The notes beneath the pieces are model-generated. The model saw only the letters and a list, made by a program, of their open reading frames with translations, was not told the DNA's origin and ran no database searches. The translations under genes and the position numbers were made by a program. This document shows positions 844-21,180 of a stretch of 64,000 nt of DNA, one piece after another; positions within the stretch are counted from its first letter, which is position 1, and each line of letters begins with the position of its first letter. Origin of the DNA: an uncultured Pelagibacteraceae bacterium (GTDB taxonomy: Bacteria > Pseudomonadota > Alphaproteobacteria > Pelagibacterales > AG-422-B15). The stretch covers positions 11,117-75,116 of the forward strand of contig CAJJAN010000029.1 in NCBI GenBank assembly GCA_905182145.1, in the 5' to 3' direction.

Positions 844-892
844 AATTTTTCGATATTTTTATAAAATTTCACACAGAGTATAGTCAAAGATA

Positions 893-2571: not shown

Positions 2572-3661
2572 TTTTATTTTTTTTCAAAATTTTATATTTA
2601 CTTTCTATTGAGTCGTGATCAATGTATAGCCCCTGAAGAAACCTACTGCCTTCAGAAGTATTAAAGCTTGTTCGGCCATGTAGCAATCTATAATTGTCCA
2701 TAATTAATAAACCACCAGCAGGCAATCTAAAATTAATCAAATACTTGTCAGAATTAATCATTCCATGAAAAATTCTTTTTGCTTCATAGTATTTTGCCAA
2801 TTTATCGGGCGCCTGATAAGGCACTAAGTCTAGTCGATTACTAAAACGTATCTGAACAAAGTTTCCTTCATCATCTAACTCTATTGTTGTTCCAGTATTT
2901 TCTAGGACTGTATCTTGATCTGTGAATCTAAAAAAAATATTGGTTTCAGATAAAATTTTAAAGGCATCAGGATATTGAGCTTTCAAATCTTTAGCTACTT
3001 GAAAGCCATCGACTAAAGTGGAATTTCCTCCTACACAGCTGTTTTCAACACAAAATAAGAACTGTATTGATGGAACTGGTCTTCGGTAAGGGTTGTCAGT
3101 GTGTGGGCCAAGTTCAATAGAAGTGTAAGCTAAATCATTAGGCTGTTGTTTTGATCTCACATCAAAAGTTTTACCAAAATTCGTTTCGCGGATAAAACCA
3201 ATTCTTTCTGCAAAATTTATGATTTCTCCTTCTTGTGCATGCAGTTCTTTAACAACAACAAATCCATATTTATGAAAATACTCAAGTATCTCCAACATCT
3301 GCTGTTCGGATTCTAAACTATAATCAAAATTAAACTCTTTGAATTCTAAGTTGCTAGTACTCCAATAGACTTTTTGTGGCAAATTATCTTTTTTTTCAAC
3401 TTCAAGTAGTAAATCTTTTAATGAGTATTTGGCCTCGTGTTGATCAGAGAATTTTATAAGAATTTCATCATGATCTAATTGTTTTGCATCTGAAAAAGTT
3501 AAATTATCTGCAAGAGTTTCCGGATCGTAAAGTCTTTGAAAAGATCTTTGGTCTACCGCAGTTTCCTCTTTAGATCTTTCACGCATCCAAAGTGGATGCA
3601 ATCGTATAGACTCTTTGTCAGTTAGTAGTCTTAGCTCAGTTGAATCAAACTCAATATTCAT
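2564..3661 (-). CDS. Fe(II)/2-oxoglutarate dioxygenase, gamma-butyrobetaine hydroxylase-like (TmpA-like candidate)
   Basis: 365 aa. HxD...H triad LGPHTDNPY ... NYRLLHGRTSF, a DUF971-like N-terminal domain, and paralogy to 23201..24343. Confidence 0.7.
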   Translation of the reverse strand: MNIEFDSTELRLLTDKESIRLHPLWMRERSKEETAVDQRSFQRLYDPETLADNLTFSDAKQLDHDEILIKFSDQHEAKYSLKDLLLEVEKKDNLPQKVYWSTSNLEFKEFNFDYSLESEQQMLEILEYFHKYGFVVVKELHAQEGEIINFAERIGFIRETNFGKTFDVRSKQQPNDLAYTSIELGPHTDNPYRRPVPSIQFLFCVENSCVGGNSTLVDGFQVAKDLKAQYPDAFKILSETNIFFRFTDQDTVLENTGTTIELDDEGNFVQIRFSNRLDLVPYQAPDKLAKYYEAKRIFHGMINSDKYLINFRLPAGGLLIMDNYRLLHGRTSFNTSEGSRFLQGLYIDHDSIESKYKILKKNKNG

Positions 3662-3678
3662 AACAAATAAATATTATA

Positions 3679-5625: not shown

Positions 5626-5647
5626 ATTATATATTTTAGATTATAAA

Positions 5648-5677
5648 AAAGGGCTTTGCCATAAGACAAAGCCCTTT
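5648..5677 (-). terminator. Rho-independent terminator after the substrate-binding protein gene
   Basis: On the minus strand: AAAGGGCTTTG - loop - CAAAGCCCTTT followed by a T-run (TTTTTTAT). GC-rich stem in an AT-rich spacer. Confidence 0.6.
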
Positions 5678-5703
5678 AATTACTTAATTATAGAAATAAT
5701 TGA

Positions 5704-6711
5704 CTATGGAAGCCAGTTAATCCACTGATCTTTATTGTTGTCTTTCCACTCTTGAACAACTTCAACAATGTCTCTACCATTTTTATCAATTTCATTGATC
5801 ATAATAGCTTGGTCATCATTGCTTAGTTTCATTTTTGAGAAAAAAGCTTTAGCAGCAGCATTTTCTGGTTTAGCAAAAACTGCAGGATTCATATAATTCA
5901 TAGTATAATCCTTAGCCCAGCCAGTTGCAGGCCATGCATCTGTGCCACAATCTTTCCAATTTTCTGCCTCTGTATAAGTTGGGCAATCAACATTTGCTGG
6001 AAGATTAACGCCAACCATCTCAAATGCTCCTTGGAACCAATGTGGTGTCCAGAAATATAAAAGGAAAGGTTCTTTTCTTGCGTAAGCTGCTTGTGCTTCA
6101 GCAAGAGCGGCAACTTCAGTACCAAGCTCAACTGCTTCAAAATCAATTCCAAGCAAGTCTAATCTTTTTTGATCATGACAGTTCCAACCAGCAACCGCAC
6201 ATCCGATTAATCTTCCTTTGCTTCCTGTTTCAGGAGTTGCAAATTGATCTTTATATTTGTTTAGGTCAGTCCAGTCTTTAAAGTCTGGATTTGCATCGAC
6301 AAAATACTTAGGTACAAAATAATCAGAAGATCCTATAATGCCTGTAGTATAAGCTTCAATAGAACCATCACCTGAGTACTCTTTTACAACTTTACCATCG
6401 TATTTAAGTGGCATGTTGATCATTACATCATCAGCCTCTGCATAACTTGGCCAACTTTCACAACCAAATTGTATATCACTACCATCAGCTATTGCTTCCC
6501 AAAGTCCAGTTCCTGACGGAAAAACTATTGAGTCAATTTTATATCCAAGTTCTTGTTCTAGAATTTGTTCAGCTACTTCACATGTTACCATTCCACCGGT
6601 CCAATCCGCTACTGCTCTAGTCATTCTTTCAGCACTTGCTGAACTAAAGCTAGAAATCATAAGGAAAGACGAGAATATGAAAGCTGCAAATGTTTTTGCA
6701 TTAAATTTCAT
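5704..6711 (-). CDS. Betaine/choline-type ABC transporter periplasmic substrate-binding protein (OpuAC/ProX family)
   Basis: Signal peptide MKFNAKTFAAFIFSSFLMISSFSSASA. Paralogous to 26315..27331 (shared GWNC, (Y/W)(F/W)(V/I)P.Y(F/I).DANPD and Y.W.P segments). Adjacent to the ProW-like permease. Confidence 0.75.
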   Translation of the reverse strand: MKFNAKTFAAFIFSSFLMISSFSSASAERMTRAVADWTGGMVTCEVAEQILEQELGYKIDSIVFPSGTGLWEAIADGSDIQFGCESWPSYAEADDVMINMPLKYDGKVVKEYSGDGSIEAYTTGIIGSSDYFVPKYFVDANPDFKDWTDLNKYKDQFATPETGSKGRLIGCAVAGWNCHDQKRLDLLGIDFEAVELGTEVAALAEAQAAYARKEPFLLYFWTPHWFQGAFEMVGVNLPANVDCPTYTEAENWKDCGTDAWPATGWAKDYTMNYMNPAVFAKPENAAAKAFFSKMKLSNDDQAIMINEIDKNGRDIVEVVQEWKDNNKDQWINWLP

Positions 6712-6835
6712 TTAATTAGTACTCCATTTATTATTTATAAAAAAAATATTTTAGACTGAAAAGTCTTATTATGTAAACTCAATAATCATTTTAATAATCA
6801 GTAAATTAATAATTTATAATAATAAAAATTTATCA

Positions 6836-8956
6836 CTATAAACCAAGGGCATCACGTTGTTTTTTAGTGTATGCAAGGCTTATTCTGTCTATAATTATAG
6901 CTAATAAACAGATCCCTATTCCTGCCGCCAAAGCTCTTCCAGTGTCAGATCTTGCTAAACCGGCAAAAACCTCTTTTCCAAGACCTTTTCCACCGATTAA
7001 TGGTGTTACAATCTGCATTGCAAAGGCCATCATTACTGTTTGATTAAAGCCCATAACGAGACTAGGTACAGCAAGTGGAAATTTAATTTTACCCAACGTT
7101 TGTAATGTTGTTCCTCCAAAAGACTTTGAAACTTCTGAATAGGTTACGGAAACTTGAGATAGGCCTAAAACTGTAAGTCTTATTATTGGAGGTATAGAAT
7201 AAATTATTGTTGCAATAAGAGCTGAAACAACTCCACCTCCAAAAAACATTAGCACAGGAATTAAATAGCAAAAATATGGAAGGGTTTGCATAGCATCTAG
7301 AATGACTTCATTAATACTTTGAAATCTTTTACTATAAGATGCCAAAATACCAATTGGTACTCCAATAATAAAACAGAAAAAAACTGCAATCATGACTGAT
7401 GACAGGGTTATCATTGCTTGAGTCCAAATATTACAAGCGGCAATAAAAAGTAAAAGAAGAGCAGTTACTGCTGCAAATCTTACGCCGACGGAAATCCATG
7501 ATATTATTACAAATGCTGACATAACATACCACCAGGGCATAAAAGTTAAATACGTATCCAACGGTCGCATTAAATAAATAGTCACATAATATCGAATGCC
7601 TTTTGTAAATGCTATGAAGGTCGGATTTATCGTAAGCCATTGCACACTAGACTGAATTGGTTCTCTAATTGATAATGCCCAAGATTCTGGGAATTGGCCA
7701 ATACCAGGCCCTATAGAATCATAGAGGCTAATAGAGTATAAAATTAAGATGCCAGAGAAAAAATAAAAATGATTGTTAAGAAATCTACTAATAGTTTCTC
7801 CATAATCAGCATTTATTATACTAACTATCTTATTAGACAAATAAGCAACAAGACCAACGACAATTTTAAAAGTCATTTCAATAATTGAGTGAATGATATC
7901 TAGTGGTTTTTCAAAAATTTTTGCCATAGGATAGATATCCCAATCCTGAGGAAGTAAATGAAATTTTTGACTCTCAGATGGTAGTGTTTTTGTCTCTGCG
8001 CTTAACGCTTTGCTAAATCTATCAAGCATGATAGCCATAAATAAAACACATAAACCACCCTCCATAGCAAAACCAACATCAAGCTTTCTAATCGCAATCC
8101 ATATTTCTGCTCCTAGACCTTGGGCTCCAATAAATGTAGCCAAAACAATAAGTGCCAATGCCATCATAATTGTTTGATTGACGCCCATCATAATACTTGG
8201 AAGCGCAAGAGGAATTTGAATCTTAAATAATGTTTGAGTCTTGGATGAGCCAAATGATACGGCTGTTTCGATTGTTTCATTCGGTACCTGCCGAATACCC
8301 AAATTAGTTAAGCGAATAATTGGAGGCATTGAATAAATCATAGTTGCTAATATTGCTGGAGCTGCACCTATACCAAAGAAAAACATTGCTGGGATAAGAT
8401 AAACAAATGCCGGCATAACTTGCATCGTATCTAAAAATGGTTTTAAAAATGACTCAAACCTATCGCTCTGTGAAGAAAGTACTCCAAAAAAAACTCCAAC
8501 AATTACTGAAAGTAAGACTGACAAACTCATTAAAGCCATAGACTCCATAGCAGGTTCCCACATATCTACGGCACCCCAAAAATAAATTCCAAATGTAAAT
8601 AATATAGCTAGCTTTAATCCTCCAACCATAAATGCAGGTATAATCATAAGAGCTGCTACAAATAACCAAGAAGAGTCTAAAAGGAAGTCTTCAAATCCGT
8701 AATAACCAAGCTTTACATAGCTTGCAACTAATCTTGTAATCCATTTGTAGTGATCTTTTAAATAGTCTTCTCCAGCATTTATCCAGGCTGTAAAAGTGAA
8801 TGCATCAGTTGCCAATTCTGGAAAAACTGATTTTTCTTCACTTTGAATAGATAAATAAATTGAGAGTGCAAATGCAACAAAAATTAGAATAGGAAGTAGA
8901 AACCTATAGTAACTCGAATTTGATACCTTATTTATTGTGTTATTTAAAAACGTCAT
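6836..8956 (-). CDS. Fused tandem ProW-like ABC permease (two transmembrane domains in one 706-aa polypeptide)
   Basis: The motifs are duplicated: LDTMQVMPAFVYLIP + MIYSMPPIIRLTNLGIRQV in half 1, and LDAMQTLPYFCYLIP + IIYSIPPIIRLTVLGLSQV in half 2. Confidence 0.8.
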   Translation of the reverse strand: MTFLNNTINKVSNSSYYRFLLPILIFVAFALSIYLSIQSEEKSVFPELATDAFTFTAWINAGEDYLKDHYKWITRLVASYVKLGYYGFEDFLLDSSWLFVAALMIIPAFMVGGLKLAILFTFGIYFWGAVDMWEPAMESMALMSLSVLLSVIVGVFFGVLSSQSDRFESFLKPFLDTMQVMPAFVYLIPAMFFFGIGAAPAILATMIYSMPPIIRLTNLGIRQVPNETIETAVSFGSSKTQTLFKIQIPLALPSIMMGVNQTIMMALALIVLATFIGAQGLGAEIWIAIRKLDVGFAMEGGLCVLFMAIMLDRFSKALSAETKTLPSESQKFHLLPQDWDIYPMAKIFEKPLDIIHSIIEMTFKIVVGLVAYLSNKIVSIINADYGETISRFLNNHFYFFSGILILYSISLYDSIGPGIGQFPESWALSIREPIQSSVQWLTINPTFIAFTKGIRYYVTIYLMRPLDTYLTFMPWWYVMSAFVIISWISVGVRFAAVTALLLLFIAACNIWTQAMITLSSVMIAVFFCFIIGVPIGILASYSKRFQSINEVILDAMQTLPYFCYLIPVLMFFGGGVVSALIATIIYSIPPIIRLTVLGLSQVSVTYSEVSKSFGGTTLQTLGKIKFPLAVPSLVMGFNQTVMMAFAMQIVTPLIGGKGLGKEVFAGLARSDTGRALAAGIGICLLAIIIDRISLAYTKKQRDALGL

Positions 8957-9052
8957 TATGGGTAAAATTATTGATATTTTATTTTATTATCAATTATAAA
9001 TTTATTAAATGCAACCTTGCATCTTATCATTAATACAATAGTATTTTGTCTC

Positions 9053-10096
9053 ATGCAAAATAACGAAAAAATTATTTGTAACAATATTTGGAAATTATTT
9101 GGTCCAAATGAAAAATCTATTTTATCTAATTTAGATAAGAGTTTGTCTCGTAATGAAGTTCAAGAAAAAACTGGTCACGTTATAGCTGTAAAAGATGTAA
9201 GTTTTTCAATAAAAAAAGGAGAGACCTTTGTTGTAATGGGCTTGTCTGGTAGTGGAAAATCAACTTTAGCAAGATGTATTTCAAGACTTATAGAGCCTAC
9301 ACATGGAGAAGTAAAAATTGATGATATTGATGTCATCAAAATGAATAAGAATGAACTCACTGACTTAAGAAGAAATAGAATGAGTATGGTTTTTCAACAT
9401 TTTGGTTTGTTTCCGCATAAAAAAGTGATTGATAATATATCCTATGGATTAGAAATTAGAGGAGCTAAGCTCAAAGAGAGATTAGAACGAGCTATGGAAG
9501 TTTGCAAAATGGTTGGCTTAGAAGGTTGGGACAATCACTATCCAAGAGAACTATCTGGAGGAATGCAACAAAGAGTTGGATTGGCAAGAGCTCTTGCAGT
9601 TGATCCAGAAATATTAATTTTTGATGAACCATTTTCTGCTTTAGATCCTTTAATCAGAAGAGAGATGCAAGATGAACTTCTTAAGCTTCAAGAAAAGCTA
9701 CAAAAAACAATGGTGTTTATTACTCATGATTTTGCAGAAGCAATTAAAATGGGTGATACAATTGCAATCATGAAGGATGGAGAGATTGTACAATTAGGAA
9801 CCCCAGAAGAAATTGTTGCCAATCCTATTGATGAATATGTTAGAGAATTTACCGAAGATGTACCAAAATATAAGGTACTTAGTGCAGGTAAAATATGTCG
9901 AAAAGAAGTGTGTGAAGATACAAAAAAAACCTTCAAAGAAGGCAATGATTGTATTGTCAATACTTCTAAAATAGACGGATTAATGGATATGTGTTGTGAA
10001 AATGATAAAACATTTCCTGTTGTTGATAGTGTAACTGGTGAATTAATTGGTGAAATTGACCGTACTATTATTATGCAATCAATGACTTCAAAATAA
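9053..10096 (+). CDS. Betaine-type ABC transporter ATPase (ProV/OpuAA-like) with C-terminal CBS-like region
   Basis: Walker A GLSGSGKST, signature LSGGMQQRVGLARAL, Walker B ILIFDEPFSALD. The ORF track starts at TTG 9017. The ATG at 9053 gives the usual short N-terminus (MQNNEKIICNNIWKLFG). Confidence 0.8.
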   Translation: MQNNEKIICNNIWKLFGPNEKSILSNLDKSLSRNEVQEKTGHVIAVKDVSFSIKKGETFVVMGLSGSGKSTLARCISRLIEPTHGEVKIDDIDVIKMNKNELTDLRRNRMSMVFQHFGLFPHKKVIDNISYGLEIRGAKLKERLERAMEVCKMVGLEGWDNHYPRELSGGMQQRVGLARALAVDPEILIFDEPFSALDPLIRREMQDELLKLQEKLQKTMVFITHDFAEAIKMGDTIAIMKDGEIVQLGTPEEIVANPIDEYVREFTEDVPKYKVLSAGKICRKEVCEDTKKTFKEGNDCIVNTSKIDGLMDMCCENDKTFPVVDSVTGELIGEIDRTIIMQSMTSK

Positions 10097-10101
10097 CAAT
10101 A

Positions 10102-11025
10102 TCAATAAAATTTCTTATTATCTCTTTGATGGTTTTCTCGAAGTGCATCACGCCAAATAATAATCATTCCTGCCAATACTATAGCTAGAACGCCTGGAAA
10201 TAATTGGTCTATAGGAGCTTCTTTAAAAAAAATCCAACCTAAAATAAATGAAGATGGAATCCCCAAATATTCAAATGGTGCCAGCTTGCTTGGTAGCATT
10301 AGGCGATAAGCATAAATAAATAAAATCCCCGCTGTTCCACCAAGTATTCCTGTCATTATCATTAAAAACAAATGGCTCATATTTTCTATTGGCTGGTGAT
10401 CAGATGAAATGAAATACAATACAAAGGCGCCAACAATTGAAAAAAACAATGAGTAAAATTGTATTTTTGCAGTTGAGATGTTTTCTGGAATAAATTTTAA
10501 AACTATCATTGATAATGACCAGCAAAATGCAACTAAAATAGGGAAAATTGAATAGATAACAAATACATCGCTTGTAGGCTTCATAATCATAATTACACCC
10601 AAAAATCCTATAACGATTGCGGACCATCTATATATTCCCACCTTATCTTTTAAAATAATAATTGATAGAAGCGCTATAAAAAAAGGTGATGCAAAAGTTA
10701 GTGTCATTGCTATCGCATACTGCATATTAATTACAGAAATAAAGAAAAAAACATTTACTCCAGTAAAACAAAGGCCTCTTATTAGACAGACGGTAATAAA
10801 TTTTTTATTTAAATCTTTGAATATTTTTAAATCATCTTGTGAAAATAAGATCAAAATTACAAGTGGAATAATTGCAAATACATTTCTAAATACTAAGAGT
10901 TGAGTAGTTGAATAAGTATCGCCAAGACTTTTAATAATTATACCATAGGAATCAATTAATATTATCCCCAAAAGCATTGCCCCTACTGCTAAGTAAGTAT
11001 TTAAATTAAATGTATATTTCTGCAT
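10102..11025 (-). CDS. DMT superfamily (EamA-like) transporter
   Basis: 307 aa, about 10 predicted hydrophobic helices and a two-repeat EamA-like organisation. Confidence 0.65.
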   Translation of the reverse strand: MQKYTFNLNTYLAVGAMLLGIILIDSYGIIIKSLGDTYSTTQLLVFRNVFAIIPLVILILFSQDDLKIFKDLNKKFITVCLIRGLCFTGVNVFFFISVINMQYAIAMTLTFASPFFIALLSIIILKDKVGIYRWSAIVIGFLGVIMIMKPTSDVFVIYSIFPILVAFCWSLSMIVLKFIPENISTAKIQFYSLFFSIVGAFVLYFISSDHQPIENMSHLFLMIMTGILGGTAGILFIYAYRLMLPSKLAPFEYLGIPSSFILGWIFFKEAPIDQLFPGVLAIVLAGMIIIWRDALRENHQRDNKKFY

Positions 11026-11132
11026 AAAGATTAATAATAAATATTGTTAACTCTTGAAAGCTATCATTTATTATCTTTAAATAAATAAATAAAAGAATTA
11101 TAGTTTTTTTTAATTTGTGAAGAACCTAAACT

Positions 11133-12323
11133 ATGAAACAGTTTAATTTAAATATAGATGAAATTTTACAACCCCAAGATTGGGGATTTCCTGTACCAAT
11201 TGCATATGGACCAGGAAGAGTTAAAGAGATTTCTTCTTTTTGTAAAAATTTAAATATTCATAATCCATTGATAGTAACCGACAGTGGAAGCAAAGACTTG
11301 CCCTTTATTGAAAATTTAATAAAAGTTTTGACAGATTCAAATATTAAGTCAGGTCTTTTTTATGGTATTTCCCCTAACCCACGAAGTGATGAAATAGCAA
11401 ATGGCTGTTCTGAGTTTAAATCTGGAAATCACGATGCTATAATTGCAATTGGTGGTGGAAGTGCAATGGATGGAGGTAAATCTATTTGTTTAACTGCTAA
11501 TAATGATTATCCACTATTTGATTTTGATTGGGAAAAACCAGCACCTAAAATTGGAAAAGAAAATCAATTTCCAAAGCTGATAACAATTCCAACTACCGCA
11601 GGAACTGGTGCCGAAACTGAGAGTACTGCAATGGTTACCGATATTGAACAAATGATGAAGTTTTGTATTTGTCATCCAGAACTTAAACCTGCTGTTGCAA
11701 TACTAGATCCGGAGTTAACATTAAAATTACCAGCAAACCTTACGGCATGGACAGGTGTTGATGCTATGGTTCACGCAATTGAAGGTTATATCGTGCCTGG
11801 ATTTCATCCTTTATGTGATGGTGCTGCTCTTGAAAGTCTATCTTTGATTTCTAAATCCCTTCATTTAGCAGTCGAAGAACCTGATAATCTTGCTGCACGT
11901 GGGGCTATGCTAGTTGCTTCTATGCTTGGCGGTATTGCTTTTATTAAAGGTTTAGGTTTAGTCCATGCAATTGCACACATGGTTGGTGCAGAGTATAATA
12001 CTCATCATGGCTTAACAAATGCGATAATACTTCCAACTGTATTAAGATATAATTTACCTACGTTAGAAGAAAAAGTAAAACGCATGTCTGAAGCGCTGCA
12101 ATATGAAGATGCTACTGTAGCCACATTTATTGCTAATCAAGAAAAACTTTTAGATAGATTCAATATACCCAAGGGGCTTAATGAAATTGGTGTGCCAGAA
12201 GATTGTGTAGACAGAATTGCAAAAAAATCTATGGTTGATACAGCATTTGGTACCAATCCAGTAGAAGCAAAGATTGATGATATGAAAAAGCTGGTTCTGG
12301 CCAGCATAATTAAAGCGCGATAA
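11133..12323 (+). CDS. Iron-containing (type III) alcohol dehydrogenase
   Basis: GGGSAMDGGK nucleotide motif and metal His motifs DAMVHAIEG and HAIAHMVGAEYNTHHG. Confidence 0.8.
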   Translation: MKQFNLNIDEILQPQDWGFPVPIAYGPGRVKEISSFCKNLNIHNPLIVTDSGSKDLPFIENLIKVLTDSNIKSGLFYGISPNPRSDEIANGCSEFKSGNHDAIIAIGGGSAMDGGKSICLTANNDYPLFDFDWEKPAPKIGKENQFPKLITIPTTAGTGAETESTAMVTDIEQMMKFCICHPELKPAVAILDPELTLKLPANLTAWTGVDAMVHAIEGYIVPGFHPLCDGAALESLSLISKSLHLAVEEPDNLAARGAMLVASMLGGIAFIKGLGLVHAIAHMVGAEYNTHHGLTNAIILPTVLRYNLPTLEEKVKRMSEALQYEDATVATFIANQEKLLDRFNIPKGLNEIGVPEDCVDRIAKKSMVDTAFGTNPVEAKIDDMKKLVLASIIKAR

Positions 12324-12335
12324 AAGGAATAAATA

Positions 12336-13760
12336 ATGGAAAATCTTCAAAAATTTTATATTAACGGCGAGTGGGTTACTCCACAGTCCAAAAATACAAT
12401 GCCTGTAATGAATCCGGCTACAGAAGAACAAATTGGAATTGTGGCCATGGGAAATACTGATGATGTAAATCTTGCTGTCAGTGCTGCAAATGCTGCATTT
12501 GAAACTTTCTCTCAAACATCAAAGGAAGAGCGTTTAAAATTACTTTTAAAAATTCAAGAAGTTACAAAAAATAGATTTGAAGATCTTGTCCAAGCTATGA
12601 GTTTAGAAATGGGAGCACCAATGACGATGGCTAGAGACGCTCAAGCTGATGCTGCTATAGGACATCTAGATGGATTTATTGAAGCATTAAAAAAACTAGA
12701 AGATTATGTAACACTTCCAAATGGTGATGTTCTTTGCAAAGAACCTATTGGTGTGTGTGGACTAATAACACCATGGAATTGGCCAATTAATCAAATTACT
12801 CTAAAAGTATTGCCTGCTATTGCTACTGGTTGTACGAGTATCCTAAAACCTTCAGAACATACTCCACTTTCTGCCGTAGTATATACAGAGATCTTACATG
12901 AAGCCGGTGTACCTCCAGGTGTTTTCAATCTTGTACAAGGTGACGGTGAAAATGTAGGAGTACCAATGTCAAGACACCCTGATATTCAAATGATGTCTTT
13001 TACTGGTTCAACCCGCGGTGGAATTTCAGTGACCAAAGAATCTGCTTCCACTGTTAAAAAAGTTACCTTGGAACTTGGAGGCAAATCTCCAAATTTAGTA
13101 TTTGCCGATTGTGATTTAAATGAAAAAGTTGCTGCTTCTGTAAATGAGTGCATGTTTAACACCGGCCAATCGTGTGATGCACCCACTAGACTATTAGTAG
13201 AAAAAAGCTGTTATGCAGAAGCGTTAAAGATTGCAAAAGAAGCTGCTGAAAATATTTCACTTGGTGACCCAAAAGAAGAAGGTGATCATCTAGGACCACT
13301 ATTTGATAAGATTCAATACGATCGAGTGCAAACGATGATTAAAGTTGGTATTGATGAAGGTGTAACATTATTAACTGGAGGACTTGGTAAGCCTGAAGGT
13401 TTTGAAACTGGCTGGTATACTAAACCGACAATTTTTGCTGATGTCACAAATGATAAACGGGTTGCTCAAGAAGAAATATTTGGTCCAGTGTTGGTAATAA
13501 TTCCGTTTGAGGATGAGGCTGAAGCTATTAAAATTGCTAATGATACTCCATATGGATTAGCAGCATATATGCAAACTGGTAGTAAAGAACGCGCTGATAG
13601 AGTTGCAAGACAGCTTCGTGCTGGTGCGGTTCATGTAAATGGTGCCGGTTATAATTATGGCTCACCTTTTGGTGGCTATAAACAATCTGGTAATGGACGT
13701 GAAGGTGGTGATATGGGTATTGAAGATTACCTCGAAACCAAGACTCTACATGGGGTCTAA
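12336..13760 (+). CDS. NAD(P)-dependent aldehyde dehydrogenase
   Basis: 474 aa. Catalytic Glu in LELGGKSP, catalytic Cys in FNTGQSCDAPTR, and FTGST and EEIFGPV motifs. Confidence 0.85.
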   Translation: MENLQKFYINGEWVTPQSKNTMPVMNPATEEQIGIVAMGNTDDVNLAVSAANAAFETFSQTSKEERLKLLLKIQEVTKNRFEDLVQAMSLEMGAPMTMARDAQADAAIGHLDGFIEALKKLEDYVTLPNGDVLCKEPIGVCGLITPWNWPINQITLKVLPAIATGCTSILKPSEHTPLSAVVYTEILHEAGVPPGVFNLVQGDGENVGVPMSRHPDIQMMSFTGSTRGGISVTKESASTVKKVTLELGGKSPNLVFADCDLNEKVAASVNECMFNTGQSCDAPTRLLVEKSCYAEALKIAKEAAENISLGDPKEEGDHLGPLFDKIQYDRVQTMIKVGIDEGVTLLTGGLGKPEGFETGWYTKPTIFADVTNDKRVAQEEIFGPVLVIIPFEDEAEAIKIANDTPYGLAAYMQTGSKERADRVARQLRAGAVHVNGAGYNYGSPFGGYKQSGNGREGGDMGIEDYLETKTLHGV

Positions 13761-13788
13761 ACTAGGGTAGTTGATAAGGACTAAGATT

Positions 13789-14925
13789 ATGGCCTTTAAT
13801 GCCCTTGAAACCGCACCCCAAATTACTCGTATTCGAGTCTACACTGTAGTGCAAAAGCCACCTGAGTTTTCCTGGTCGCCCATCATGCCCAAGGTACTTA
13901 ACACAGATACTATCGTACGTTTGACAGACGATAGTGGACAGGATGGCATCAGTAGCGTGTGCACTTTTACTGAACATGGCGTTGATAATTCGGTGCTGGA
14001 ATCGATGCGGCCACTGCTAATTGGCCTACTCGAACAGAAGCCACAGTCTCTAAAGGATCAATGGGCTTGGATGCAGCAACGTCGACCTGGCGTGTCTAAC
14101 ACTGCAATTGCGGGCTTAGACATTGCCATGTGGGATCTTGTTGCAAAACGACAAGCCTTGCCACTGTATAAACTGCTTGGCGGTGAGCGGCATAGTATCC
14201 GTGCCTACGCTAGTATCCCAGTGATGGAACAAGCGTCCCAGTATATAGAGCTTATCAACACGTTACGTCAAACTGGTTTTTCGATTTTTAAGTTCCACTA
14301 TAAATCTATAGCCGAAGCTGATATTTCACTGATGCGTGATGTTTACCATGTTTTCAAAGATCAGGGTTGTCAGTTTATGTTTGACGCTGAAGGTCATTAT
14401 GAAGCCCAAGGAGCGGCTAAGGTAGCGGCAGTAATGGAAGAACAAGGATTCATTTGGCTAGAGGCGCCATTTGATGACCATGATTGGGCGAGTTATCGTG
14501 CCTTAAAGCGCAGCACTTCTGTGCCTATCATCCCAGCAGGTAATAGTGTGGTAGATTTAGCCCATGTACAACAGGCCATTGCCGCCGATTGCTGGAGCGC
14601 CCTACGCATTGACGCTGCCACGGCAGGTGGCATCAGTCCCGCTATGGCTATTTTTACCATGGCTGCAAAGTCTGAACTCAATGTTGAACTTCAGTCTTGG
14701 GGTAGCTCACTGTCTACCGCTGCCAATCTTCACCTGGCCCTAGCCAATGCCAATAGCCATTATTTTGAAGTACCCGTTCCCATCGATGATTTTCTCATTC
14801 AAGGTGTTGATCACTTCCAATTAGATTCTAATGGTCACGTTTCTGCACCCAAAAAGGCGGGTCTAGGACTTGATGTTGATTGGTCAATTATTGAGGCCAC
14901 ATCTAGCAGATGTGTAGAATTATAA
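13789..14925 (+). CDS. Enolase-superfamily (mandelate racemase/muconate lactonizing enzyme-like) protein, compositionally foreign
   Basis: DIAMWDLVAKRQALPLYKLLGG capping motif and candidate barrel ligands FMFDAEG, WLEAPF and IPAGNS. The ATG at 13789 is preferred over the track's TTG at 13771. About 48-50% G+C against about 30% in the flanks. Confidence 0.75.
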   Translation: MAFNALETAPQITRIRVYTVVQKPPEFSWSPIMPKVLNTDTIVRLTDDSGQDGISSVCTFTEHGVDNSVLESMRPLLIGLLEQKPQSLKDQWAWMQQRRPGVSNTAIAGLDIAMWDLVAKRQALPLYKLLGGERHSIRAYASIPVMEQASQYIELINTLRQTGFSIFKFHYKSIAEADISLMRDVYHVFKDQGCQFMFDAEGHYEAQGAAKVAAVMEEQGFIWLEAPFDDHDWASYRALKRSTSVPIIPAGNSVVDLAHVQQAIAADCWSALRIDAATAGGISPAMAIFTMAAKSELNVELQSWGSSLSTAANLHLALANANSHYFEVPVPIDDFLIQGVDHFQLDSNGHVSAPKKAGLGLDVDWSIIEATSSRCVEL

Positions 14926-16356
14926 ATGCTTGAAAATTTACCTGCTGATAAGATTGTTTCAAATATTATAGAAAAAAAAATAAGCGCTGAAGAAGTTACT
15001 GATTATTATCTCCAACGTATAAAAAAGTATAATCCAGTTATCAATGCTATTGTTTCACTTAAAGATGAAGAAGAAATAATAGCAGAGGCTAAAAAAAAAG
15101 ACTTCATTAAAAACCCTGATAGTAAACTCAAACTACTTTATGGTCTGCCATTAGCTGTAAAAGATCTATTTGATGTCAAAGGTATTCCTACTACATATGG
15201 AATAAAAGAATTCAAAAATAATATTCCTACAAAAAACTCGTTGATCGTAGATAGATTAATTAATCACGGTGCAATTATTATAGGTAAGACTAATGTTCCA
15301 GAATTTGCAGTAGGTGCTCATACTAATAATAAATTGTTTGGTCCTACAGCAAATGTATACGATACAAACAGTTCGGCAGGTGGATCAAGTGGAGGCTCAG
15401 CTGCTGCCATAGCAGCAGAATTAGTACCAATGTCAGATGGATCTGATATGATGGGATCATGCAGAATTCCTGCTGCTTTTTCTAATATATATGGAATTAG
15501 GCCAACCCCTGGATTAATCCCAGTCGAGAGAAATGCTAGTCAAAAGATAGATTTGCCTCATTTAAGTACCGCTGGATGCCTTGCTCGAACTCCAAGTGAT
15601 ATGTCCCTAATGCTAGATGCAATATCGGGAAAGCATCCATTAGATCCATTCTCTTTTGATCTTCATTCAACATTTACCAATAGTAATTTTAGTGAATTGC
15701 AGTTTTCTAAAATAAAGATTGGTTGGCTTGGAGACATACAAGGTCAATATTTGTTTGAAGAAGGTATACTTGAATTGTGTGAAAAGGCTCTTCAGGTTTT
15801 GGAGCAACATAAATTACAGGTCGATTTAATAAAAATAGATATGAAGACTAATATAGTGTGGGATAGCTGGACTACCTTACGTGCCTCAATTTTGTACCAA
15901 GACATAATTGATATGAAATTAGAAAATATTGGTGAGATGCATCCAGGTATAGTTTGGGAGCACCATAAAGGTCAAAATATTACAGATGATGATATATCAA
16001 ATGCCTTAAATCAAAGAAATGTATGCATGCATGAAATTGATAATTTATTTAATAAATTTGATTTTCTTGCTTTACCAGCAGCTCAAATTTTTCCATTTGA
16101 TAAAGAAACTGACTATCCAAAAAAAATAGGTAATACTGAGCTCGATACGTACCATCGTTGGATGGAGGTTGCCGCTCTTGCAAGCTTATTAGGATTGCCT
16201 ACAATATCAGTTCCTGTCGGATTCAATAAAGAAGGGCTACCAATGGGAATGCAGATTATTGCAAAAAAAGGGAAAGACTTAGAATTAGTTGCGTTTGCAA
16301 AAAAATATGAAGAAATTTTTTTATTTTCTAAATATAGACCTAAAAATTTTAATTAA
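14926..16356 (+). CDS. Amidase-signature family amidase
   Basis: GGSSGGSAAAIA signature, a catalytic Lys context LAVKDLFDVKG, and a length of 476 aa. Confidence 0.85.
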   Translation: MLENLPADKIVSNIIEKKISAEEVTDYYLQRIKKYNPVINAIVSLKDEEEIIAEAKKKDFIKNPDSKLKLLYGLPLAVKDLFDVKGIPTTYGIKEFKNNIPTKNSLIVDRLINHGAIIIGKTNVPEFAVGAHTNNKLFGPTANVYDTNSSAGGSSGGSAAAIAAELVPMSDGSDMMGSCRIPAAFSNIYGIRPTPGLIPVERNASQKIDLPHLSTAGCLARTPSDMSLMLDAISGKHPLDPFSFDLHSTFTNSNFSELQFSKIKIGWLGDIQGQYLFEEGILELCEKALQVLEQHKLQVDLIKIDMKTNIVWDSWTTLRASILYQDIIDMKLENIGEMHPGIVWEHHKGQNITDDDISNALNQRNVCMHEIDNLFNKFDFLALPAAQIFPFDKETDYPKKIGNTELDTYHRWMEVAALASLLGLPTISVPVGFNKEGLPMGMQIIAKKGKDLELVAFAKKYEEIFLFSKYRPKNFN

Positions 16357-16362
16357 GTAATT

Positions 16363-17526
16363 ATGAATAAAGAAAAATTAAATAGTGAGCCAAACCCTAC
16401 GCTAGTTAATCTTAGGGATAATAAGGCAAAATGGAATTTGCCAGAATATAGGAGAGAAGGATATAGAAATTTACATAGAATAAATAGATACGGTTTATTT
16501 TTAAGATCAGATCAAGTTTTGCAACTTAATAAAAATATTAACCATGAGATTGAGAAAATTCCTCTGGTTCAAAAGATGACTAATCATAAGTCTTTTTGTT
16601 CTTTAGTGGTAGGCAGAGATCAAGATATCTTGCTAGAAAAGTACGCTAATGATTTCTCTGAATTACAACCTCAAACTATTATGTCTATTTCAAAAATGTA
16701 TTTAAATTTATTTGTTGGAGAATTAGTAGAGAAAAAAAAATTAGACTTATCTAAAAAAATTTCATTTTATTTGCCAAATATTGGCTCTGGCTATGCCAAT
16801 GCGACTGTTCAAAATATTCTGAATATGAATGTAGATAATCTTTACACTGAAGATTATACCGATGCATTTTCTTCATCGTTTGCACATGAATCTGTTGGGG
16901 GCTGGAGATTACCTGAAGTACTGAATGATAACGAAAATCAAGAAGAGTTTTTAAATAAAATAAAAGCTACGAATGAAATTGATCCTACAAATCAATCTGA
17001 ATTTGCAAAATATAAATCAGCAAATTCTGATGTTATTGGAATTTTAGTTGAAAAAGTAAGTGGTATTCCACTAAGAGATTGGGCTTTATCAGCTGTAGAA
17101 GCTGCAGGTTTTGAAGATGCACTTTATATGGCGACTGATAGAGCTGGAATGCCATGGATGTCAGGTGGTGGATGTCTAATACCCAGAGATTTTCTAAGAA
17201 TGGGCTTATTATTCTCTAGAAAAGGGTTAGGCGTATCAGACAGATCTATTGGGTCAGCAAATTTTATTGATGAGACACTTAAGTTTTTGGGGCCTAAATA
17301 TATGACTTTAACAAATAATAGCAGTGTCTATTATGCTAATCAAACCATGAAGTCTAAAGATTGGATTGGACACTCTGGTTATGGAGGGCAGTTTTTGATG
17401 ATAAATTTAAAGACTAAAATAGCTGCTGGTTTCTTTTCAGTAATAGAAACGGAATCAGCAACAGATGAAACATACAAGATAGATATGATACAAATGCTTG
17501 AAGATATTGTATCTGGAAATTATTAA
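16363..17526 (+). CDS. Beta-lactamase-fold serine hydrolase (class C / family VIII esterase / D-aminopeptidase-like)
   Basis: SxxK motif SISK, YxN-like YAN, and GHSGYGG in place of the KTG box. Confidence 0.65.
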   Translation: MNKEKLNSEPNPTLVNLRDNKAKWNLPEYRREGYRNLHRINRYGLFLRSDQVLQLNKNINHEIEKIPLVQKMTNHKSFCSLVVGRDQDILLEKYANDFSELQPQTIMSISKMYLNLFVGELVEKKKLDLSKKISFYLPNIGSGYANATVQNILNMNVDNLYTEDYTDAFSSSFAHESVGGWRLPEVLNDNENQEEFLNKIKATNEIDPTNQSEFAKYKSANSDVIGILVEKVSGIPLRDWALSAVEAAGFEDALYMATDRAGMPWMSGGGCLIPRDFLRMGLLFSRKGLGVSDRSIGSANFIDETLKFLGPKYMTLTNNSSVYYANQTMKSKDWIGHSGYGGQFLMINLKTKIAAGFFSVIETESATDETYKIDMIQMLEDIVSGNY

Positions 17527-17547
17527 ACTAATGGAAAGGTAAAAATT

Positions 17548-17934
17548 ATGAGAGGTTATGTAATGGTTGGAACAAATGATCTAGATAAATCAGAAAAGTT
17601 TTATAATAAACTACTAGATACTGTTGGACTTAAAAAAATATATAGTGACGAGGGTTGTGTTGGTTATGGACAAAAAACTGGTCCTGAAGTAGTAGAATTT
17701 TATATTACAATGCCTGCTAATGGTGAGCCTGCCACTTATGGTAATGGTACACAAATTTCATTTTTATCAAATACTAGAGCAGAAGTTGATAAATTTCATG
17801 CTACTGGAATTGAGAATGGTGGAGTGTGTGAAGGTTTACCAGGACTTAGACCAGAAGGAGCATCGACCTACTACTCTTATGTTAGAGATCTTAATGGCAA
17901 TAAAGTCTGCGCTTACACAGACTCTAAAGATTAA
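17548..17934 (+). CDS. VOC/glyoxalase-bleomycin resistance family protein
   Basis: 128 aa. N-terminal VMVGTNDLDKSEKFY and C-terminal YVRDLNGNKV are typical beta-alpha-beta-beta-beta module ends. GAAAGG lies upstream of the ATG. Confidence 0.6.
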   Translation: MRGYVMVGTNDLDKSEKFYNKLLDTVGLKKIYSDEGCVGYGQKTGPEVVEFYITMPANGEPATYGNGTQISFLSNTRAEVDKFHATGIENGGVCEGLPGLRPEGASTYYSYVRDLNGNKVCAYTDSKD

Positions 17935-19451
17935 TCATTAAATAATTTTTGGTATTTTTTGCGTAATTCTGCTTTTTGAACTTTTCCCATAGCATTACGG
18001 GGAAGACTATCTAAAAAGATAATTTTTTTTGGTTGTTTAAATTTTGCCAATTTATCTGATAAGTAATTTATGATTTCTGTTTCTATAATTGCCTCATTTT
18101 TTCTTACCACAGCTGCAACAACTGCTTCACCAAAATCTTTATGTGGAGATGCAAAAACTGCTGACTCTTCTATGGATTCTATTTCATCTATTATTGTTTC
18201 AACTTCTTTAGGATATATATTGAGTCCGCCAGAAATAATCAAATCTTTATCGCGACCAACTATGGTTACGTATCCATTCTTATCAACTTTAGCCATATCA
18301 CCAGTAATAAAGAAGCCATCTTCACGAAATGACTCGCTTGTTTTACCTGGCATTTGCCAGTAGCCCTTAAATACATTCTCACCTTTTAATTCAATAATAC
18401 CAATTTGACCTTGCTCAACTTCATTACCTTTATCATCTGCTATTCGCAATTGAATTCCTGGTAAAGGCAGACCAACTGTCCCGGCGATACGTTCGTTATC
18501 ATATGGATTTGATGTACTCATATTGGTTTCGGTCATTCCATATCTTTCGAGAATTTTTTTACTTGTGCGATCTTCAAATTCTTTATGAGTTTCAGCTAGT
18601 AATGGTGCTGAACCAGAAATAAAGAGGCGCATATGTTTTGTTAAACTATGGTTAAAACGGCTGTCACTTAATAATCTAGTATAAAATGTTGGAACACCCA
18701 TCATCGTTGTAGATTTATTCATCCATTTTAAGGCCTGCTCAATATCAAATTTAGGTAAAAAAATCATTGATCCACCTACATAAGCTAGTAGATTCGACGC
18801 TACAAAAAGTCCATGCGTATGATAGATAGGAAGCATATGTAAAAGGACATCTTCTTTAGTAAACTTCCAATATTCTTTAAGAACTTTAGTGTTCGAAAGT
18901 AGATTTTGATGGCTAAGTATAGCTCCTTTTGATTTTCCCGTTGTGCCAGATGTGTATAAAATTGCCGCTAAATCATCTGGGCCTCTTTCAACAGTATCAA
19001 AAAAAGTTTCTTGTTCTTCGGCTAAAGCAGTAAGTGAGCCAGTTTCATCTGAACTTAAGGTTAATAAGACTGTGTTTGCCTCAAGGTTCTTAGCTATTAT
19101 ATTTTCAACATCTTTATCTACTATAATAATCTTTGCAGATGAATCCTTGATAAAATAATCAAGTTCACTTGAGGTGTAACCAGTATTTAGAGGTAAATAC
19201 ACTCCACCCGCTTTTATTGTTGCAGCATATAAAGCAATTTGAGTATTTGATTTTTCTGCTTGAACAGCCACTCTGTCACCTACCCTCATGCCTTTTTTAA
19301 TTAAAACATTTGCCAGTTGATTAATCATAATATGGAAATCTATATAGCTAATTTCTTTATTGTCATTAATCAGAAAAGTACTTGAGCTATTTCTAGTTGG
19401 CTCAAATATTGAATCAAATAAACAATTGGTTTTAGAGATACTTGTTTGCAT
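17931..19451 (-). CDS. AMP-dependent acyl-CoA synthetase/ligase (MatB/CaiC-like)
   Basis: ILYTSGTTGKSKGA, YGMTET, GDMA...DKNGY, and a C-terminal NAMGKVQK motif. 506 aa. Confidence 0.8.
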   Translation of the reverse strand: MQTSISKTNCLFDSIFEPTRNSSSTFLINDNKEISYIDFHIMINQLANVLIKKGMRVGDRVAVQAEKSNTQIALYAATIKAGGVYLPLNTGYTSSELDYFIKDSSAKIIIVDKDVENIIAKNLEANTVLLTLSSDETGSLTALAEEQETFFDTVERGPDDLAAILYTSGTTGKSKGAILSHQNLLSNTKVLKEYWKFTKEDVLLHMLPIYHTHGLFVASNLLAYVGGSMIFLPKFDIEQALKWMNKSTTMMGVPTFYTRLLSDSRFNHSLTKHMRLFISGSAPLLAETHKEFEDRTSKKILERYGMTETNMSTSNPYDNERIAGTVGLPLPGIQLRIADDKGNEVEQGQIGIIELKGENVFKGYWQMPGKTSESFREDGFFITGDMAKVDKNGYVTIVGRDKDLIISGGLNIYPKEVETIIDEIESIEESAVFASPHKDFGEAVVAAVVRKNEAIIETEIINYLSDKLAKFKQPKKIIFLDSLPRNAMGKVQKAELRKKYQKLFND

Positions 19452-19456
19452 TAAAT

Positions 19457-20581
19457 TTAATTTAATTTTCTATCTTTATAATCAGAACTCATAGCCATTA
19501 GTGAAGATATATTTATCACAACTCCTAAACCAGGTCTATCTTTTGGCTTGGCATATCCATCTTTTATCTTAAAACCAAGATCACAAAACTTTAATGCATG
19601 TGAAATGTATTCAGGATAAATTTCAGCCATTTCTGTATTTGAATTACTTATACAGAAATGAATCATAGCAGCGGCGGCTACAGACATTGAATTCCAACAA
19701 TGTGGTGAGATGGTAACACTTTTTTTTGCAGATAGGTTTGTAATTTCTGTCATATCAATTATTCCACCAACAGCCGCAATATCTGGGTTAAGTATATCTG
19801 CGGCGCTAGCGGCAAGAACCTCTTTAAAATGTGGAATTTCAAATTGTTTTTCACCAGTAACTATTTTTAATCCTGTTTGAATTCGAATTGAGGCCAGTGA
19901 TCTGATTTTTTGACCATCTACAGGCTCTTCATACCAATAAGGTCTATATTCCTTGATCAAAGGTGCTAAGCTTAAAGCTAAATTATCGTCATCTGGGCTA
20001 GCTAAATCAAGCATCAAAGGTGTTTCAAAACCTATTAAATTTCGAATATGAGCAACACATTCTTTAGCCTGTGACAAAGATCTATTTTGCAAGGGGTATA
20101 TTTTGATCCCCTGATAGCCATCACTCATTAATGAAACTGCCCTTTGGCCTAAAGTTATATTGTTAGGACACTTTTCACTCCATGTATTAGCATAAACAGA
20201 AACTTTTGCTTTTGGCTTTGATGACAGCAAATAAGATAATGGTTTTTTTTCTTCTTTGCTAAAAATATCCCATAGGCTCATCTCTATTGCACTTGTTGCA
20301 GCAGAAAAATCAATTCCTCTATGCTTATCAGCAATTTCTTTAGCCTTTATATTAAAAGTCTCAGGAGTGAGATTTTCAATTGAAGCCATAGCATCAACTA
20401 AACTATGAATTATTTCTGAAACTCCTTTTTCTCGAAACGGAAGAGTAAATGCCTCACCCCAACCTTCAATACCACTATCAGTTGTTAGCTTTAATAGTAA
20501 AAAAGGTTTAATTTCCGACCACCCATCATCACTTAAAGTTGATTTAGTGACCCAAGTTTCAATTCTTGAAAGATATTTCAT
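19457..20581 (-). CDS. Enolase-superfamily protein (MR-subgroup-like, Asp/His dyad present)
   Basis: AIEMSLWDI capping motif, candidate ligands MLDLAS, WYEEP and VTGEKQ, plus NPDIAAVGGI and SPHCW. Native AT-rich composition. Confidence 0.7.
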   Translation of the reverse strand: MKYLSRIETWVTKSTLSDDGWSEIKPFLLLKLTTDSGIEGWGEAFTLPFREKGVSEIIHSLVDAMASIENLTPETFNIKAKEIADKHRGIDFSAATSAIEMSLWDIFSKEEKKPLSYLLSSKPKAKVSVYANTWSEKCPNNITLGQRAVSLMSDGYQGIKIYPLQNRSLSQAKECVAHIRNLIGFETPLMLDLASPDDDNLALSLAPLIKEYRPYWYEEPVDGQKIRSLASIRIQTGLKIVTGEKQFEIPHFKEVLAASAADILNPDIAAVGGIIDMTEITNLSAKKSVTISPHCWNSMSVAAAAMIHFCISNSNTEMAEIYPEYISHALKFCDLGFKIKDGYAKPKDRPGLGVVINISSLMAMSSDYKDRKLN

Positions 20582-20583
20582 AA

Positions 20584-21180
20584 TTATTTATTTTTAATAT
20601 AGCTATCTTCTGATATGTCGCCACTCCATCGCCAACTCCAAATCATATGATGCTCTTCAGTTCTATTTGAATGATTTATCATAGATGGATTGTGCACATA
20701 ATCACCAACTTCTCCATAAATTTCAGGATTACTATCCTTATTAAAGTATCCTTTACCAGAGATTATAAAAAAAGTTTCTTCTGCTGGATGTCTGCGTACA
20801 GGATAATCTATATTTGCCATTTGCATGAAAATACCAACCTCATAATCATTAGAGTTAATAATTCCTGATGGTCCTAAGAGTACAAATTGAATAAACTGTT
20901 TTTTAAGATCACCTTCTATTCTACCCCCCATATCTGAATGGTGCCATGGTAAAAAATTTGATATTTCTTTTAACTGAAGTGCAAGCAAATGATCGTCATT
21001 AGATATAAATGAATTAAAAAGTTTTGAAAGCTCATCATCTTCATTTTCTTTAAGATTAAATGTTTGGTTGCCCGCTAAAGATAAGGCTTCAGCAGTAAGA
21101 GAACCATTTTTAGAGCCTTCATTTTGATAAACATCTGATAACATCATCAAGATATCTTTAAATATTTTTTCAGTGTTCAT
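20584..21180 (-). CDS. Cupin-fold protein resembling the DMSP lyase DddQ family
   Basis: YPVRRHPAEETFFIISGKG and GDYVHNPSMINHSNRT resemble the DddQ cupin motifs as I remember them (YP.H.HPAEE.Y....G and HPS...H..RT). The first His is replaced by Arg and the Tyr by Phe. Confidence 0.5.
   Translation of the reverse strand: MNTEKIFKDILMMLSDVYQNEGSKNGSLTAEALSLAGNQTFNLKENEDDELSKLFNSFISNDDHLLALQLKEISNFLPWHHSDMGGRIEGDLKKQFIQFVLLGPSGIINSNDYEVGIFMQMANIDYPVRRHPAEETFFIISGKGYFNKDSNPEIYGEVGDYVHNPSMINHSNRTEEHHMIWSWRWSGDISEDSYIKNK

Follow-up and report, generated by a model that had tools for sequence, protein, structure and literature searches.

An enolase-superfamily gene of probable gammaproteobacterial origin between the aldehyde dehydrogenase and amidase genes of a SAR11 bacterium

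Genes at the locus and their composition

SAR11 bacteria are among the most abundant organisms on Earth and their genomes are a model of streamlining; gene gain in such streamlined cells is mostly inferred from statistics. Here we describe a single gene for an enolase-superfamily enzyme, located between the genes for an aldehyde dehydrogenase (ALDH) and an amidase in an uncultured SAR11 bacterium of the family Pelagibacteraceae, which was most probably gained with a short tract of DNA from another bacterial class. The DNA analysed, hereafter the window, is a 64-kb stretch of contig CAJJAN010000029.1 (assembly GCA_905182145.1), and all unattributed coordinates refer to it. An earlier sequence-only reading had singled out the gene by its G+C content and had offered two explanations, a recent acquisition or replacement and an assembly chimera. 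The features of the locus are given below with the evidence for each, where GC3 denotes the G+C content of third codon positions.

11133..12323, + strand: Fe-dependent alcohol dehydrogenase (FeADH), native, first gene of the FeADH–ALDH–(enolase) unit (Pfam Fe-ADH, ADH_Fe_C; GC3 0.189)
12336..13760, + strand: ALDH, native, 474 aa, with the last ~10 codons and the stop donor-derived (Pfam Aldedh; GC3 0.194)
13720..13729, no strand: left crossover patch TTGAAGATTA, the same in donor-type, recipient-type and window sequence (mapping of informative sites)
13730..14921, + strand: foreign tract of 1,192 nt, made up of a donor ALDH 3' end, a donor spacer and the enolase-superfamily gene to its last codon (92.9% nucleotide identity to contigs L110, L111 and L112 across the gene, same spacer; absent from loci L096–L105)
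13776..13780, + strand: AAGGA ribosome-binding site 8 nt before the ATG, arrived with the donor spacer (sequence reading; same spacer in L110 and L113)
13789..14925, + strand: enolase-superfamily enzyme, 378 aa, 4JHM-like subgroup (Pfam MR_MLE_N, MR_MLE_C; PDB 4JHM, E = 4e-69)
14922..14925, no strand: recipient ATAA, the third base of the last codon and the TAA stop (comparison of donor, empty site and window)
14926..16356, + strand: amidase, native, abutting the stop of the inserted gene as TAAATG (Pfam Amidase; GC3 0.208)

The open reading frame (ORF) at 13789..14925 had a GC of 0.468–0.471 and a GC3 of 0.409–0.410 when computed on the window sequence. Across 42 other well-defined genes of the window GC3 was 0.196 ± 0.021 with a maximum of 0.238, placing the ORF at z = 10, and a greedy ORF set for the whole window gave a gene GC of 0.33 ± 0.04 and a GC3 of ~0.20. 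The synonymous-codon preference distance of the enolase-family gene to the window genes was 1.46, against 0.71 ± 0.16 (maximum 1.11) for the other genes, and its codon usage was closer to the genes of a candidate donor lineage, represented by contig L110 (distance 0.86), than to those of SAR11. All genes of L110 have a GC3 of 0.38–0.44, with 0.44 for its own enolase-family gene, so that a composition outside the range of the recipient is matched in a candidate donor. This places the gene far beyond the spread of the genome, as the sequence-only reading had suspected from hand counts of G+C. Those counts were exact (29, 29, 29 and 30 of 60 at 13801–14040, 41 at 14581–14640 and 17 at 14941–15000), as were its boundaries: ALDH TAA at 13758–13760, a 28-nt spacer, ATG at 13789 and a TAA at 14923–14925 abutting the ATG at 14926. 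The flanking FeADH and ALDH genes have an overall GC of 0.36–0.39, above the window average; their GC3 is ordinary despite this (0.19), and they are therefore regarded as compositionally native.

Carriers, empty site, donor lineage and joins

In a public assembly collection 129 blocks contain the exact 378-aa protein, on contigs of up to 0.2–1 Mb. The same neighbours surround it in at least 10 independently assembled contigs of 35–146 kb and in a metagenome-assembled genome (MAG) at NCBI, GCA_028338155.1. The shared order runs from OpuAC/permease/ATPase genes through EamA, FeADH, ALDH, the enolase-family gene and the amidase to β-lactamase-fold, glyoxalase-fold and acyl-CoA synthetase genes, a second enolase of mandelate racemase (MR) type, a cupin of dimethylsulfoniopropionate (DMSP)-lyase type, BKACE and 3HCDH. 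These carrier loci are 96.9–99.9% identical to the window, and their proteins are named Pelagibacterales at NCBI.

Relatives without the gene were found through the 475-aa members (P0137, P0138) of the 90% cluster of the window ALDH. In all 10 of these loci (L096–L105) the order FeADH–ALDH–amidase–β-lactamase-fold is kept, and only 8 nt, CACTATAA or CAATATAA, separate the ALDH stop from the amidase ATG. Their flanks are collinear with those of the window and uniformly 92.8–94.1% identical, and they are therefore taken to represent a sister population or species with an empty site (ALDH–CACTATAA–amidase). Adjacency of ALDH and amidase without the enolase gene was one of the outcomes that the sequence-only reading had envisaged for related genomes. 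The C-terminus is …LHF(P/S)S in ~115 Pelagibacterales orthologues found by the ALDH search at 78–97% identity, and …LHGV in the window type alone. In more distant Pelagibacteraceae single-cell genomes FeADH is followed directly by the amidase. A scan of the genome collection with the amidase returned no same-species genome.

Donor-type loci were retrieved by scanning JGI and ENA metagenome contigs. Three of these, L110, L111 and L112 (GC 0.43–0.45), carry an ALDH (72% amino acid identity), a 29-nt spacer that is the same spacer as in the window, and then the enolase-family gene, which is 93.7% identical to that of the window in amino acids and 92.9% in nucleotides. The adjacent ALDH of the window is only ~70% identical to that of L110 in nucleotides, so the enolase-family gene is much closer to an unrelated lineage than its flanking gene is. 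The MutS of L110 shares 98% identity with proteins of MAGs that bear the label Oceanospirillaceae bacterium or Pseudomonadales bacterium. Composition, synteny and similarity together thus point to a gammaproteobacterial source, and support a mid-GC marine gammaproteobacterium of the lineage labelled Oceanospirillaceae/Pseudomonadales as the probable donor of the segment. The closest homologues outside SAR11 lie in a 43–45% GC gammaproteobacterial lineage of matching composition, which favours acquisition in a comparison that the sequence-only reading had proposed. A first protein search had seemed empty between 60% and 99% identity because the donor-type alleles (93–94%) share the 90% cluster of the query, and the 60% protein matches (L011, L013 and L014) were rejected as donors given these closer alleles. 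Contig L113 has an enolase gene ~99.5% identical to that of the window (5 differences in ~1,060 nt) beside an L110-type ALDH. It was not relied on as the donor, being a 1.7-kb mosaic of L110-type ALDH and window-type gene that switches inside a 22-nt identical stretch; if real, it would represent the donor population.

In the donor context an S/N-oxide reductase gene (BisC/TorA family) is followed by a GcvT-like demethylase, the ALDH and the enolase gene. Within this lineage the enolase gene is accessory, most strains having other genes upstream of mutS. A 2,841-bp block runs from 200 nt of the GcvT-like gene through the ALDH and the enolase gene to 46 nt beyond it, and its copies in the L110 and the L111/L112 contexts are 99.6% identical. 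This block lies at 4343–7183 of both L110 and L111, with the 3' end of the GcvT-like gene truncated, and has moved within the gammaproteobacterial lineage too. One of its two contexts is by mutS; the other follows homoprotocatechuate-type genes (FAA hydrolase, HpcH aldolase, LigB). In L115, L116 and L118, also of the donor lineage, the enolase gene has an internal deletion of ~220 codons (residues ~56–275), indicating that it is decaying in some strains.

Both ends of the foreign tract could be placed by comparison of donor-type, empty-site and window sequences. At informative ALDH sites up to 13719 the window agrees with the recipient at 381 and with the donor at 13, and is donor-type from 13730 onward. 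Since the last recipient-type site is 13719 and the first donor-type site 13730, the crossover is assigned to TTGAAGATTA at 13720–13729. The donor and recipient ALDH 3' ends are ~82% identical over the last 100 nt. The left boundary thus lies ~30 nt inside the ALDH gene rather than in the spacer, where the sequence-only reading had put the start of the compositional shift. At the right end the sequences are …GAATTTTAACCC in the donor, …CACTATAAATG in the empty site and …GAATTATAAATG in the window. The join here is illegitimate: it has one shared T and falls between 14921 and 14922, which is 4 nt upstream of the amidase ATG. The donor tract accordingly does not reach the TAA, as had been proposed: its last base is 14921, and the final 4 nt of the gene including the stop belong to the recipient. 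The last codon changed from TTT (Phe) to TTA (Leu), with loss of the gene's own last base and stop and use of the recipient TAA. In total ~1,192 foreign nt were gained and ~15 recipient nt (TTTTCTTCATAGCAC) lost. The ALDH tail was recoded from HFSS* to HGV*, and a GG indel at ~13753 relative to L110 shortens it.

These comparisons suggest that the insertion post-dates the split from the sisters, which are ~6–7% divergent in nucleotides. Among carriers the enolase gene differs by ≤0.4%. Between the window and L110 it has 49 synonymous and 24 non-synonymous codon differences, which show purifying selection on a constrained gene with its signature residues intact. Amelioration is limited: 41 differences are AT in the window and GC in the donor and 28 are the opposite, indicating weak AT drift with no clear shift towards SAR11 values. 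Polarised amino acid changes are about evenly divided between the two lineages (9 to 6).

Divergence between carriers is mosaic. In the carrier locus L005, compared with window 6836–21180, it is 0.1–0.9% from EamA to glyoxalase, 3.6% in the transporter genes, 2.9% in the acyl-CoA synthetase and ~11% in the second enolase and the DMSP-lyase-type cupin, a pattern of recombination blocks with an apparent allelic replacement at 19457–21180. The low EamA–glyoxalase divergence in L005 and L008 is not an unbiased signal of a sweep, because both loci had been selected for an enolase protein exactly matching that of the window.

Two short contigs carry hybrid arrangements. In L119 (OOFS01001902.1), positions 616–2139 match window ~13330–13889, with a hybrid ALDH downstream of an agmatinase-like gene. 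Similarity to the window ALDH is ~58% in the 5' two-thirds of this hybrid, and the match to the window type is 100% through its 3' 430 nt, the spacer and the first part of the enolase gene. L119 thus represents a second capture by way of ALDH homology or else a chimera. In L114 (OJBN01006275.1), positions 817–2007 match window 14680–15003, with an AT-rich enolase-family ORF after a TauD/γ-butyrobetaine-hydroxylase-like gene. Identity to the window is 99.7% across the final 245 nt of this ORF and the initial 78 nt of the amidase, a stretch joined in frame at the homologous position. L114 is thus a genuine recombinant allele of this site or else a chimera of PCR or assembly.

The inserted enzyme and its neighbourhood

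The assignment of the product to the enolase superfamily, already made from sequence alone, was confirmed by Pfam matches to MR_MLE_N (1.5e-12) and MR_MLE_C (1.1e-36). The AF2 model (pLDDT 94.5) has the fold of the superfamily, with Foldseek TM scores of 0.75–0.94 and superfamily structures as the top 50 matches listed. The closest structure was PDB 4JHM, a Pseudovibrio sp. 'putative mandelate racemase/muconate lactonizing enzyme' from structural genomics, matched with E = 4e-69 over residues 11–372 and superimposed on the model with a TM of 0.94, an rmsd of 1.5 Å and 33% identity in the structural alignment. Both have K-x-H after strand 2, Asn in the third-ligand position (…HGNC in 4JHM, …AGNS here) and Gln in place of His (…EIQSMG and …ELQSWG). 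The inserted enzyme therefore belongs to a 4JHM-like subgroup, for which 4JHM provides a name and no function. Literature searches on 4JHM, on SAR11 mandelate racemase and on the enolase superfamily with carnitine or betaine returned nothing on the 4JHM-like family.

The residues at the ends of the barrel strands are K168-x-H170, D199, E225, N252, D275 and Q302. Among 116 homologues K168, H170, E225 and D275 were conserved in every sequence, D199 in 115 and Q302 in 112. At position 252, that of the third metal ligand, 75 homologues have Asn, 33 Tyr and 7 Leu or Ile. The Asn in the third-ligand position and the missing His, which is Q302 here, had been correctly recognised in the sequence-only reading; their conservation across the subfamily means that they are not decay of the window copy. 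Asn binds Mg in glucarate dehydratase, and Tyr, Leu and Ile cannot. The third metal ligand is for this reason perhaps unused, and the metal site may have only two protein ligands.

In mandelate racemase K-x-K follows strand 2 (K164/K166), an Asp strand 6 (D270) and a His strand 7 (H297). Membership of the mandelate racemase subgroup was rejected, since K168-x-H170 and D275 are present in all 116 homologues with Gln instead of the strand-7 His in 112 of them. The inserted enzyme resembles the acid-sugar dehydratases of that subgroup, such as L-talarate/galactarate dehydratase (2PP0) and the product of the second enolase-family gene of the window (19457–20581), in its two-domain fold (TM 0.82–0.87, or 0.8–0.87 with mandelate racemase included), in the Asp and Glu ligands after strands 3 and 4 and in the Asp after strand 6. 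It differs from them in having His for the second Lys of K-x-K, Asn (Tyr, Leu or Ile in relatives) for the third carboxylate ligand and Gln for the strand-7 His. Named NCBIfam families were likewise rejected. These included talarate/galactarate, galactonate, mannonate, rhamnonate and c3LHyp dehydratases, OSBS, dipeptide epimerase and muconate cycloisomerase, and all 13 matches fell far below their cut-offs (5–8 times), the best scoring 99 bits against 500. The only model to align end to end, HProlDhtase (residues 11–367), scored 88 bits, far below its cut-off of 500.

The window between 5.7 and 27.3 kb encodes two OpuA-type transporters, FeADH, ALDH, BKACE, a 3HCDH-type dehydrogenase, a γ-butyrobetaine-hydroxylase-like protein and a DMSP-lyase-type cupin, and is an island for quaternary-amine and osmolyte use. 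On a contig of an unrelated organism of 57% GC (L133, positions 3–5907) FeADH (62% identical to that of the window), ALDH (72%) and an enolase homologue (48%) occur in the same order, followed by genes for TauD and a GcvT-like protein on the opposite strand. The insertion thus recreates a canonical FeADH–ALDH–enolase order. The window FeADH is itself 71–74% identical to the syntenic gene of other Pelagibacteraceae. Other family members adjoin PhyH- or TauD-type dioxygenases, a BCCT transporter or a DMSP-lyase-type cupin. Since members of the enolase superfamily have carboxylates as substrates, the most straightforward view is that the inserted enzyme accepts the acid made by FeADH and ALDH. 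At lower confidence than the insertion itself, the product may thus be an active enzyme on an FeADH/ALDH-made carboxylate in the catabolism of quaternary amines or osmolytes.

Some enolase-superfamily enzymes encoded beside DddQ have the Lys/Lys acid–base pairs of the muconate-lactonizing subgroup; the inserted family, unlike these, combines an Asp following strand 6 with K-x-H following strand 2. Such enzymes are cited as DddQ neighbours in a preprint (bioRxiv 10.1101/161257). They share with the inserted family the superfamily and a setting of betaine-type transporters, demethylase-like genes and DMSP-lyase-type cupins.

The window holds a second enolase-superfamily gene (19457–20581, − strand). 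Its product has canonical D/E/E ligands and D/H catalytic residues, with the canonical His in the column of Q302, though it does not have K-x-K, and is 22% identical to that of the inserted gene. It stands directly beside the DMSP-lyase-type (DddK-like) cupin gene, the two occupying 19457–21180, which echoes the DddQ/mandelate-racemase-like neighbourhood published in bioRxiv 10.1101/161257. The amidase at 14926–16356 is only 46–54% identical to the same-position amidase of other Pelagibacteraceae (against L017–L024), compared with 65–77% for the neighbouring FeADH, β-lactamase-fold and ABC genes. It is 57–58% identical to an amidase on two contigs of ~37–39% GC binned as 'Woeseia' and 'gamma proteobacterium', both with FeADH–amidase adjacency.

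Route of insertion and alternative explanations

The arrangement indicates that ~1.19 kb of gammaproteobacterial DNA (13730–14921) was inserted into the SAR11 chromosome at the corresponding position, where the resident ALDH gene meets that of the amidase. A plausible route is homology-facilitated illegitimate recombination (HFIR) of a linear DNA fragment, a process defined in naturally transformable bacteria and E. coli conjugation (PMC3240628). As in HFIR, one end lies within similarity to the recipient and the other was joined illegitimately, and foreign DNA was inserted with a small recipient deletion and no mobile-element machinery. The right end, with its single shared T and loss of ~15 nt, has the form expected of the illegitimate end. 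Laboratory HFIR uses a long near-identical anchor; here the anchor is a homeologous gene end, and the event is deduced from natural sequences, unlike those of PMC3240628. The left crossover is confined to 13720–13729, and ~82% identity over 100 nt with an exact 10-nt patch could also count as microhomology. Loss of mutS and mutL and promiscuous recombination have been described for SAR11 (PMC12374537), and the absence of MutS and MutL may have eased recombination at such low identity. A genomic island or mobile element was rejected. As the sequence-only reading had remarked, there is no integrase, transposase, tRNA or flanking direct repeat: the neighbours are all metabolic genes, no tRNA or Rfam match was found in the 64 kb, and flanking repeats were only at chance level, with no signs of a mobile element.

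Replacement, the second half of the acquisition proposed from sequence alone, would have an older AT-rich family member at the site overwritten, with the L114 hybrid as a remnant allele. In L114 an AT-rich family member does continue in frame into the final 245 nt of the window gene, with the window-type amidase next, but L114 is one 2-kb contig that begins and ends in Nextera adapter, its upstream gene encodes a TauD-family dioxygenase rather than an ALDH, and all 10 sister loci examined show a clean ALDH–8 nt–amidase site. We consider replacement unlikely, with only a small chance of being correct; acquisition stands, as an insertion with ~15 nt deleted. A smaller chance still is given to a gene that had always lain downstream of ALDH, kept its high GC by selection and was precisely deleted in the sisters. 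The recurrence of FeADH–ALDH–enolase in L133 and the known gene loss of SAR11 would accommodate this, but the GC3 of 0.41 fits the gammaproteobacterial lineage and not SAR11, the last 30 nt of the ALDH and the spacer are donor-type where ~115 orthologues have another tail in common, identity to the gammaproteobacterial copy is 93% in nucleotides compared with only ~70% for the adjacent ALDHs, and more distant Pelagibacteraceae are without the gene. No AT-rich syntenic orthologue was seen in basal clade members among the loci examined.

Passage in the reverse direction, from SAR11 into a gammaproteobacterium, would be in keeping with the accessory status of the gene in that lineage, where most strains have other genes upstream of mutS, and with the presence of the ALDH–enolase block in two different contexts. 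It is nevertheless highly implausible: the composition equals that of the gammaproteobacterial genome and is 10 SD from SAR11, the gene travels in the gammaproteobacterial lineage with an ALDH of the same composition (GC3 0.41) and a GcvT-like fragment, and within SAR11 it is limited to one shallow lineage. The chimera proposed from sequence alone, a read- or contig-level join or a binning error between a SAR11 genome and a mid-GC organism, would account for the abrupt switch in composition, and short metagenome contigs around the gene (L113, L114 and L119) do look mosaic, with adapter sequence in L114 and L117. Its probability is negligible, as both junctions recur in the 10 long contigs, which come from different projects, and in the NCBI MAG, the exact protein occurs in 129 blocks, the joins are in frame and leave three genes intact, and those assemblies do not derive from one shared erroneous reference. 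The recurrence of the same neighbours and protein refutes that half of the sequence-only reading.

Several observations weigh against the proposed insertion, its route or the suggested role of the enzyme. One recipient-type base (13745) lies inside the donor tract, and the nearest securely sampled relatives of the donor are still 7% different in nucleotides; L113, the only contig with a window-identical gene by a donor-type ALDH, may be an assembly chimera. Because the anchor is short and only ~82% identical, a double illegitimate (microhomology) event is equally compatible. Uptake might have been by transformation, by vesicle or by gene-transfer agent; a scan of 2.9 M viral contigs for a phage vector found no relative. 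The neighbourhoods of the family vary, with ALDH in only 3 of about 9. Taking these points into account, we hold with high confidence to the explanation as a whole, that is, a gammaproteobacterial insertion by an HFIR-like route, in which the activity of the enzyme is the weaker part.

A broader joint reading is conceivable, although we regard it as improbable. It would combine a new activity on a β-substituted FeADH/ALDH carboxylate with a conserved ALDH 3' end that serves as a recombination landing pad. Examples of such an activity would be carnitine dehydration, or a β-elimination that releases trimethylamine or dimethylsulfide, with β-alanine betaine or DMSP-type compounds as substrates. 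The landing pad would let the gene hop between bacterial classes into any genome with an ALDH orthologue, and the L133 order, the two donor-lineage contexts and the L119 hybrid would then be traces of this hopping.

The kind of event described here, horizontal transfer by partly illegitimate recombination of a gene for an enolase-superfamily enzyme, is already known; the completeness of its resolution is unusual. The gain of one gene across bacterial classes can be followed at the level of single bases, through a donor-type locus, an empty site, a 10-nt crossover patch and an illegitimate second join after which the three closely packed genes are all still intact. The pattern fits the idea that loss of mismatch repair lets SAR11 recombine with very dissimilar DNA, and provides a clean natural example of a streamlined ocean bacterium gaining one gene. 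The event also draws attention to an orphan enolase-superfamily subgroup, solved as 4JHM without an assigned function, which selection appears to keep beside a particular FeADH/ALDH pair in marine osmolyte-catabolism loci. This pairing offers enzymologists a concrete set of substrates.

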